From a virus: a stretch of DNA of 54,525 bases. Under the pieces are notes generated by a model. It was not told the DNA's origin. It saw only the letters and a list, made by a program, of their open reading frames with translations, and searched no databases. The stretch lies in UHGV virus genome UHGV-0179380; one strand, written 5' to 3'. The translations under genes and the position numbers were made by a program. Below, piece after piece: positions 12,145 through 12,249 of this stretch (the first letter of the stretch is position 1; each line of letters starts with the position of its first letter).

Positions 12145-12219
12145 ATGTGCGAAAATTACGTTATGGAAGTGATTATTATCATCATTGGATTGTTATGTAT
12201 TCTGCTATCGACACTATAA
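12145..12219 (+). CDS. hydrophobic mini-protein (24 aa)
   Basis: MCENYVMEVIIIIIGLLCILLSTL; ATG one nt after upstream stop; followed directly by terminator hairpin. Confidence 0.4.
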   Translation: MCENYVMEVIIIIIGLLCILLSTL

Positions 12220-12249
12220 ACCCCGCTTCGCGCGGGGTCGTGTTTATAC
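12219..12249. terminator. hairpin terminator between convergent genes
   Basis: ccccgcttcgcgcgggg stem-loop, reverse complement of the hairpin at 4721-4741. Confidence 0.6.

Follow-up and report, generated by a model that had tools for sequence, protein, structure and literature searches.

A 24-codon mini-ORF at the end of an antisense accessory operon in an mEpimmI-group coliphage looks like an unannotated small membrane protein gene

Introduction

The virus genome UHGV-0179380, analyzed here as one strand of 54,525 nucleotides (nt) and referred to as the window, carries a 24-codon open reading frame (ORF) at 12145-12219 (+), directly after a gene for a KilAC-domain protein and directly before a hairpin. 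This mini-ORF looks, from its sequence and its conservation in relatives, like a real, never-annotated phage gene for a small membrane protein and not like a classical type I toxin locus. On balance, we consider it probable that the mini-ORF is translated by coupling to the KilAC gene and that its product is a single inner-membrane helix, probably N-out, serving as a dispensable accessory factor that acts on the host membrane or on a membrane protein. An earlier note on the window, made from the letters alone, had compared the element to chromosomal type I toxin loci.

The virus is a temperate siphovirus, a coliphage that belongs to the mEpimmI group. Identity over this stretch is 97.5% with Escherichia phage MagusPhagus and approximately 88% with mEp013, mEp554, and mEp021. 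The mEpimmI phage group is described in PMC11893012, which does not discuss the mini-ORF. In a megablast search, the locus was found in 35 of 5,426 complete E. coli genomes.

Results

The mini-ORF encodes a strongly hydrophobic peptide

The mini-ORF starts with the ATG at 12145 and stops with the TAA at 12217-12219. Its product, MCENYVMEVIIIIIGLLCILLSTL, consists of an acidic N-terminal cap and a single hydrophobic helix. The acidic residues, E3 and E8, lie ahead of the helix, and the allele of the window has no K, R, or H. The C-terminus, LSTL, lacks a polar, aromatic, or basic cluster. Hydropathy was calculated on the Kyte-Doolittle scale as the mean per run of 14 residues. The peptide averages 2.8 over residues 6-24 and 3.41 over its best 14 residues, which is the most hydrophobic stretch among all ATG mini-ORFs of 14-60 amino acids (aa) in the window. 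In 30 dinucleotide-preserving shuffles of the whole window, no ORF of 14-60 aa preceded by a Shine-Dalgarno (SD) sequence reached 3.4. With the threshold lowered to 3.0, six SD-preceded hydrophobic ORFs were observed, against an average of 0.07 in the shuffles. Because the shuffles gave no comparable ORF and the hydropathy is the highest in its class, we take the mini-ORF not to be a chance feature. The peptide also passed the rule for small hydrophobic proteins of at least 10 hydrophobic residues in 15 (PMC2887945).

The earlier note had called the mini-ORF isolated. In fact, it is tightly packed: only 1 nt separates its ATG from the TGA of the KilAC gene (TGA-N-ATG), and its stop codon lies 24 nt from the stop of a convergent minus-strand gene, with the hairpin in between. 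An SD-like AGGGGG (12130-12135, +) is found 9 nt before the ATG, within the last KilAC codons. Given this junction and the nearby AGGGGG, ribosomes are proposed to reach the mini-ORF by termination-reinitiation or by SD-led entry.

Other readings of the same nucleotides were considered and rejected. An internal ATG (M7) could serve as the start, but Met7 is Leu in the other type A lineages defined below and in an IMG/VR variant (M7L); codon 1 was therefore assigned as the start. Read-through of the TGA would extend the KilAC protein, and frame 0 is closed again in the loci L007, L008, and L006. A +1 frameshift at the run of five G would fuse KilAC to the transmembrane (TM) helix, and the other lineages have GGGA, so that the run is not kept. 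A 32-aa minus-strand ORF annotated in MagusPhagus (CDS0029, L001 2457-2555) corresponds to 12156-12254 (-) of the window, crosses the terminator, and lies opposite the mini-ORF; its frame is not kept in other alleles, and it is probably a mis-call.

No family in Pfam (toxin families included), PHROG, or NCBIfam matched the peptide, even at E-values up to 10. PADLOC defence-system models gave no match for the peptide or for its operon partners, in a search with 10 proteins from the two plus-strand islands of the tail region. Exact look-up of six 24-aa variants among about 15 billion predicted proteins retrieved none of them. Neither PGAP nor the phage annotators list the mini-ORF in the relatives' records that were checked. 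RefSeq rejects ab initio proteins shorter than 40 aa, and the missing annotation is attributed to such gene-caller length cut-offs (PMC11188072).

The reading frame is conserved in three diverged lineages

Twenty-two loci were inspected, 20 side by side and two further phages separately; seven are from phages and fifteen from the set of 35 E. coli prophages. The interval from the KilAC stop to the terminator takes one of four states, which we call types A, B, C, and null. The mini-ORF is the type A cassette (24 aa), which occurs in the window, L001, and L005, in L007 and L008, and in L006. The window, MagusPhagus, and strain 09-00049 encode MCENYVMEVIIIIIGLLCILLSTL. The peptide of L007 and L008 is MCDHYILEVIIIIIGL(L/F)FILLSTM, and that of L006, with a GTG start, is CEHYILEVIIIAVAVMLVLSPIL.

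The earlier note had named loss of the frame in homologs as a result that would speak against its proposal. The frame is kept: the three diverged type A lineages, from prophages and viral contigs, share the same start, the same stop, and 24 codons without indels at 23-41% nucleotide divergence. The window and L007 differ at 17 nt, 12 of them in third and one in second codon position, which amounts to seven synonymous and six conservative codon changes; EVIIIIIGLL is identical between the two despite five silent changes. L006 differs from the window at 31 of 75 nt, and its product still has 24 residues and is equally hydrophobic. When the substitutions were permuted, an open frame of equal hydrophobicity was retained in only 1.0%, 0.5%, and 0.3% of the trials for the three comparisons. 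Each of the five other frames contains a stop codon in at least one allele; only that of the mini-ORF is open throughout. The motif MC(E/D)(N/H)Y(V/I)(M/L)EVIII marks conservation at the amino-acid level among type A peptides. The TGA-N-(A/G)TG junction and AAGGG upstream of it are also kept in all three lineages.

A 14-nt block, GAAGTGATTATTAT (12166-12179), contains four synonymous sites and is invariant in all type A lineages, while the rest of the ORF differs by 23-41%. Its minus strand carries AATAAT. Constraint at the nucleotide level, a weak antisense promoter, or a recent gene conversion may lie behind this invariance.

The slot holds interchangeable cassettes

Type B encodes 45 aa (MKIEVLALIIMGLIVFGVHAADWDWAAIANNMAHAHPMSLMYINY) and occurs in six of the seven mEp/Magus phages (five translated, mEp044 by alignment only) and in L014 and L015. 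Type C encodes 38 aa (MKIEVLALIVMGLIVFGVHAVDLDWKTIAENIALMEME) and occurs in L009-L011, L013, and L020. In the null state (L016-L018), there is no ORF, and the hairpin follows the KilAC stop after 19 nt. Two further type C copies have lost the start codon, which is ATA in L012 (around 1060) and GTA in L019 (around 1340). Together with the null loci, these copies show that the slot gene has been lost repeatedly.

Types B and C represent a real protein family, with 44 clusters (P0001-P0044) in a database of 5.8 billion proteins, all from E. coli-type sources; both the N-terminal hydrophobic segment and the tail are conserved across the clusters. No significant match to Pfam, PHROGs, NCBIfam, or PADLOC was obtained for these alternative cassettes. 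The faint matches of type C to Holin_SPP1 (E = 0.13) and phrog_5315 (E = 0.016) are not significant. A combined profile of types A, B, and C retrieved only types B and C from the large protein database. A scan of the GTDB representative genomes for the type A DNA pattern gave no matches, and a metagenome scan gave one contig with an allele that was already known.

No DNA alignment of type A with type B or C was obtained, and the proteins share only M, E-V, and I. Homology of type A to B/C was therefore rejected, and the exchange was treated as non-orthologous replacement. In L009 (H10), a type C cassette lies within flanks that are 97% identical to the window. Since near-identical flanks enclose cassettes whose DNA cannot be aligned, the slot is best described as a recombination cassette, bounded by the last KilAC codons and by the terminator palindrome.

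Some features of the slot are recorded as side observations. At the N-terminus, the products of the B/C cassettes (L002 2706-2843, L009 1060-1176) have a stretch resembling a signal peptide, MKIEVLALIxMGLIVFGVHA, which might be cleaved at VHA-A/V, and the tail of the family is either His/Met-rich (DWDWAAIAENMAHAHPMGLMHMNF) or short and acidic (DLDWKTIAENIALMEME). Three loci (L010, L014, and L019) have an extra insert of approximately 300 nt upstream of the cassette, between it and the KilAC gene. The insert contains a 67-aa ORF, MLKYDGQKMVRF..., that matches phrog_14327 (E = 9e-6). Behind it comes another short hydrophobic frame (..ENVLVVAGAIAIVYAF..), uninterrupted in each of the three loci, for which no start codon is conserved.

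A terminator hairpin follows the stop codon

The earlier note placed a terminator immediately after the mini-ORF, which agrees with our analysis. A hairpin at 12220-12238, with a GC-rich 7-bp stem (ACCCCGC/GCGGGGT) and the loop TTCGC, begins one base past the stop codon and was scored as terminator-like in the consensus scan. It folds with -17 kcal/mol on the plus strand (z = -2.9) and -19.5 kcal/mol on the minus strand. In the window allele, the T-tract behind it is weak or interrupted on both strands (CGTGTTTATA on plus, TTTATAGTGT on minus). The equivalent hairpin is annotated as a terminator in mEp021 (on both strands), mEp013, mEp554, and mEp010, and it is present in every allele, including those without the mini-ORF. 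By sequence and position, the hairpin is assigned as a bidirectional intrinsic terminator between the convergent plus-strand operon and the minus-strand tail genes.

The orientation of the hairpin varies with the cassette: it reads CCCCGCTTCGCGCGGGG with types A and C and CCCCGCGCGAAGCGGGG, the exact reverse complement, with type B (window 12220-12238 compared with L002 2852-2868, L003, L004, L014, and L015). The loop variants CTCCGG and CCGTGG occur in L006 and L019, where the stem is kept.

Features of type I loci were searched for and are largely wanting

The resemblance to chromosomal type I toxin loci that the earlier note saw did not hold up: spacing, leader, antisense promoter and terminator, and C-terminal tail are all wanting. 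The criteria of Fozo et al. for type I loci ask for at least 400 nt upstream and at least 250 nt downstream (PMC2887945). With gaps of 1 nt and 24 nt, the mini-ORF falls short of a free-standing type I locus on both sides.

As the earlier note had suggested, an antisense small RNA (sRNA) promoter was searched for on the minus strand, with consensus and relaxed scans, and no conserved one was found. The consensus scan of the window gave no minus-strand promoter of at least 9/12 matches near the mini-ORF, weak promoters being beyond the reach of sequence scans. The relaxed scan gave sites of only 8-9/12, and their positions differ between alleles with the exception of AATAAT, whose sequence is just that of two Ile codons on the complementary strand. 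No minus-strand terminator was found inside the KilAC gene by the consensus scan. Rfam gave no match over the whole window at gathering thresholds and none in 11200-13000 at E-values up to 10. The mRNA has no sign of a structured leader, the 146-nt region around the mini-ORF start folding no better than shuffled sequence (z = +0.4). Charged, polar, or aromatic clusters at the C-terminus (or N-terminus) are a feature of type I toxins, with IbsC, ShoB, and DinQ as exceptions (PMC8309996; PMC2887945).

The mini-ORF is the last cistron of an antisense accessory operon

Tail genes J, I, K, L, and M and the tape measure gene lie on the minus strand, interrupted by two short plus-strand islands. The first island (11292-12219) contains genes of 51, 116, and 82 aa followed by the mini-ORF, which thus ends the plus-strand moron cluster as the earlier note had stated. 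The first cistron (51 aa, 11367-11522, +) matches phrog_29559 (E = 7e-24) and is annotated in relatives. The second (116 aa, 11535-11885, +) matches phrog_38567 (E = 2e-43). The third (82 aa, 11895-12143, +) encodes a KilAC (antirepressor C-terminal) domain, matched above the gathering score by Pfam ANT PF03374 (E = 1.8e-6), and is named 'phage antirepressor KilAC domain-containing protein' by PGAP in relatives. These three cistrons are widely conserved within the group. Over the first island, the GC skew turns positive, and the GC content is 41-47% compared with approximately 50% in the tail genes.

A promoter-like TTGATC-17-TATATT (11292-11320, +) with 9/12 matches was found in the consensus scan. 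The block around it, TACAATATGTATATT(T/G)TACTCAAA, is near-invariant in 13 diverged loci and better conserved than its surroundings. At 11256-11271, a CRP-consensus-like TGTGA-N6-TCACg has invariant half-sites and a variable spacer in the 13 loci. With its center approximately 62 nt ahead of the presumed transcription start, the site is placed as in class I CRP-dependent promoters. This arrangement suggests that the antisense accessory operon may be dependent on cAMP-CRP. The near-invariant promoter block and the hairpin of all alleles provide, at sequence level only, an own promoter and terminator; the slot is variable (A, B, C, or null among 22 loci), and the composition deviates in GC content and skew. 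These features support the first island being a predicted autonomous transcription unit, a moron in the sense of PMC3594210.

The order of the region is L-[plus cluster]-66aa-M, so that the accessory operon lies antisense between tail genes L and M. The convergent 66-aa gene of the tail operon (12244-12444, -) lies downstream of tail gene M, matches phrog_3249 (E = 1.5e-20), and is annotated in relatives. Tail gene M itself (12441-12794, -) belongs to the tail operon. Because the tail operon runs on the minus strand, its transcript is necessarily antisense to the mini-ORF and to the whole island. Tail transcription in the lytic programme could thus silence the plus island, as a generic effect of orientation and without a dedicated antitoxin.

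Tail gene M and the tape measure gene flank the second plus-strand island (12866-13925), which, like the first, closes with a bidirectional hairpin (13903-13925). Its 84-aa gene (13136-13390) carries the PGAP label 'ParE family toxin-like protein' in several prophages, and neither NCBIfam nor PADLOC supported this label at E-values up to 1.

An array of similar mini-ORFs lies elsewhere in the window

Eleven back-to-back ORFs of 22-32 aa at 27279-28111 (-), each with 1-3 acidic residues directly before one TM segment, form a mini-TM array. It has the lysis cassette (endolysin, 29453-30025; Rz-like spanin, 28995-29483) on one side and the small terminase gene (26689-27174) on the other. Conservation of individual members at the protein level extends to mEp010, mEp044, mEp013, and mEp021, which carry 4-7 copies. 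Examples of conserved members are MIDPLIILSACVAVWLAIMIFIE(N/S), MNAYEMLLLVAVVVVIAVD(V/F)YR.., and MKWLDFFFLIVAIVLTMTAL(T/A)Q, and the copy number ranges from 4 to 11. No PHROG family was found for the array members, and the array is largely unannotated in these four phages.

The mini-ORF had been described as similar in character to this array, and the likeness is borne out by the acidic N-terminal cap and the one TM segment. The two also share tight packing or coupling, conservation at the protein level, and variable presence, and the mini-ORF peptide lacks basic residues as three array members do. They differ in location and strand. Paralogy is unproven, as there is no significant sequence homology: the best DNA match of the mini-ORF in the window is in array member 5 (IIIIIGL, 27666-27692), but its score was reached by one of 60 codon shuffles.

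Discussion

The reading that we favor runs as follows. The four-gene moron would be transcribed from its own conserved promoter-like element, presumably in the prophage and possibly under CRP control, and would end at the bidirectional terminator. Having two acidic residues ahead of its helix and lacking basic ones, the peptide would most likely insert N-out/C-in, by analogy with acidic-tailed coat proteins and with array members that have basic C-termini. The slot appears to hold interchangeable small proteins with hydrophobic N-termini, or nothing, from which it follows that its product should be dispensable for phage growth. Action at the host inner membrane is suggested by analogy, either as superinfection exclusion of the kind known for HK97 gp15 or as modulation of membrane proteins by a small protein. 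A self-contained toxin-antitoxin pair is less likely than such an exclusion or modulation role.

Several points weigh against this reading. Translation and phenotype of the mini-ORF are predictions, and since the family searches found no homolog of known function, the proposed role is drawn from analogy only. The type A comparison comprises only three independent lineages, and several relatives lack the mini-ORF or have an inactivated copy. Sequence identity is lower in the mini-ORF than in its flanks (59-77% versus 85-88%), as would also be expected of a weakly constrained spacer. AT-rich sequence favors hydrophobic codons, and intergenic DNA tends to encode hydrophobic peptides (PMC11188072). 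Type B occurs in both OmpA- and LamB-dependent phages; the slot thus does not track the receptor type.

In a rival explanation, the mini-ORF is non-functional: the 75 nt from the KilAC gene to the terminator would be an AT-rich spacer, open and hydrophobic by accident. Annotation pipelines never called it, its six variants are absent from 15 billion predicted proteins, the null alleles show that it is dispensable, and both its faster divergence and the hydrophobic tendency of AT-rich intergenic DNA (PMC11188072) would be expected of such a spacer. We nevertheless consider this explanation unlikely, because an accidental frame would not account for the third-position bias or for the exact start, stop, length, and hydrophobicity kept over up to 41% divergence. 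Nothing comparable arose in shuffled sequence, the SD and the coupling layout are conserved, and the cassettes that take its place in the slot encode proteins with demonstrable conservation. The absence from annotations is explained by the length limits of gene callers (PMC11188072). It is highly improbable that the mini-ORF acts in cis, with translation up to the terminator mattering and not the peptide. A ribosome at the stop codon would then occlude the hairpin and tune read-through or the stability of the mRNA 3'-end; in a variant of this idea, the run of Ile codons might act as an Ile-sensing attenuator. The stop codon does abut the hairpin, translation ends at most 20 nt from the stem in every allele, and there are five consecutive Ile codons, with three rare ATA codons in the L007 allele. 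Against this, there is no plus-strand gene downstream to regulate, the single stable hairpin has no antiterminator alternative that we could find (folding z-score +0.4), the Ile run is missing from the other cassettes and from the L006 allele, and conservation of the type A peptide at the amino-acid level would be needless. The leader-peptide attenuator was rejected for want of a downstream plus-strand gene and of an alternative fold.

A type I-like system, in which a depolarizing membrane toxin is restrained by antisense RNA, either a short sRNA inside or beyond the ORF or the long tail transcript, strikes us as rather improbable. Size, extreme hydrophobicity, and helix would fit membrane toxins of type I; IbsC, at 19 aa, likewise has no basic residues at its C-terminus (PMC8309996). 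The convergent tail transcript cannot avoid being antisense, and type I toxins of prophages can be encoded on polycistronic mRNAs with a 3'-overlapping antisense RNA, for example yonT/SR6 (PMC5848175). The invariant GAAGTGATTATTAT carries AATAAT on its minus strand with weak -35-like hexamers 16 nt off. Against the proposal stand a minus strand without a promoter of at least 9/12 near the mini-ORF and with relaxed sites that are non-conserved apart from the Ile-codon complement, the lack of a minus-strand terminator in the KilAC gene, of an Rfam sRNA, and of unusual mRNA structure, neighbors at 1 nt and 24 nt, and a C-terminus without a polar, aromatic, or basic tail. The null and start-loss alleles, moreover, show no sign of a retained antitoxin.

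Comparison with known systems places the small membrane protein reading in context. HK97 gp15 is a small inner-membrane superinfection-exclusion protein encoded by a moron within the tail operon (Cumby et al. 2012; PMC3594210). Like that moron, the first island has its own promoter-like element and terminator inside the tail operon of a temperate coliphage siphovirus, and a small hydrophobic product that varies between relatives, with a composition unlike that of the neighboring genes. In contrast, gp15 belongs to the YebO family (PMC3594210) and has no sequence relationship to the mini-ORF peptide, so that by sequence membership of the mini-ORF in the gp15/YebO family is excluded. The gp15 moron is also a single gene, whereas the mini-ORF is a fourth cistron, encodes a far smaller product of 24 aa, and lies antisense to the tail genes. 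The E. coli type I toxins of the Ibs/Sib, ShoB/OhsC, Ldr/Rdl, and Zor/Orz loci resemble the peptide in being shorter than 30 aa and essentially one hydrophobic helix. Unlike those loci, the mini-ORF has no antisense sRNA gene, long leader, type I spacing, tandem toxin-antitoxin repeat, or family match, and it is predicted to be translationally coupled to the upstream gene.

AcrZ, MgrB, KdpF, and MgtS are bacterial small membrane proteins that modulate larger membrane proteins. With these and with the hydrophobic microproteome of Enterobacteriaceae (PMC11188072), the mini-ORF peptide shares a single TM segment, a length below 50 aa, the lack of annotation, a narrow clade, and a place beside genes of unknown function. 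It differs from AcrZ, MgrB, KdpF, and MgtS in being phage-borne, and with 24 aa and no extramembrane tail it lies at the lower end of the known size range.

Should the peptide be made, a prevalent gut coliphage group gains one more gene that every annotation pipeline has missed. The mini-ORF alone would be unsurprising, since hydrophobic micro-ORFs are widely predicted in phages and enterobacteria, and on present evidence it does not amount to a new type of system; small membrane proteins that phages encode in accessory units are a known kind. The slot, for its part, is a defined recombination site at which small hydrophobic proteins are exchanged between otherwise near-identical prophages. 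It offers a compact test case for what membrane peptides of 20-45 residues do in temperate phages, be it exclusion, host modulation, or toxicity, and for whether antisense placement in a tail operon switches accessory genes between the lytic and the lysogenic state.

A phage-wide repertoire of mini-TM peptides is a more interesting lead than the mini-ORF alone. As a speculative extension, to which we give only an outside chance, the mEpimmI phages would possess a dispersed and rapidly exchanged set of micro-proteins of 22-45 aa, each a single N-out helix with an acidic cap, that could form an unrecognized class of phage membrane effectors, with the slot gene silenced by the convergent tail transcript once the phage turns lytic. 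Its members may be the 11-gene array, the slot at the end of the possibly CRP-controlled antisense operon, and a few isolated copies. Such proteins could, for example, block DNA translocation by incoming phages or mediate abortive infection triggered by membrane potential. Further SD-preceded hydrophobic mini-ORFs of 20-41 aa were seen elsewhere in the window, at 42956-43072 (-), 48113-48214 (+), 53137-53262 (+), and 44963-45025 (+), and these may be further members of this set of small membrane proteins.

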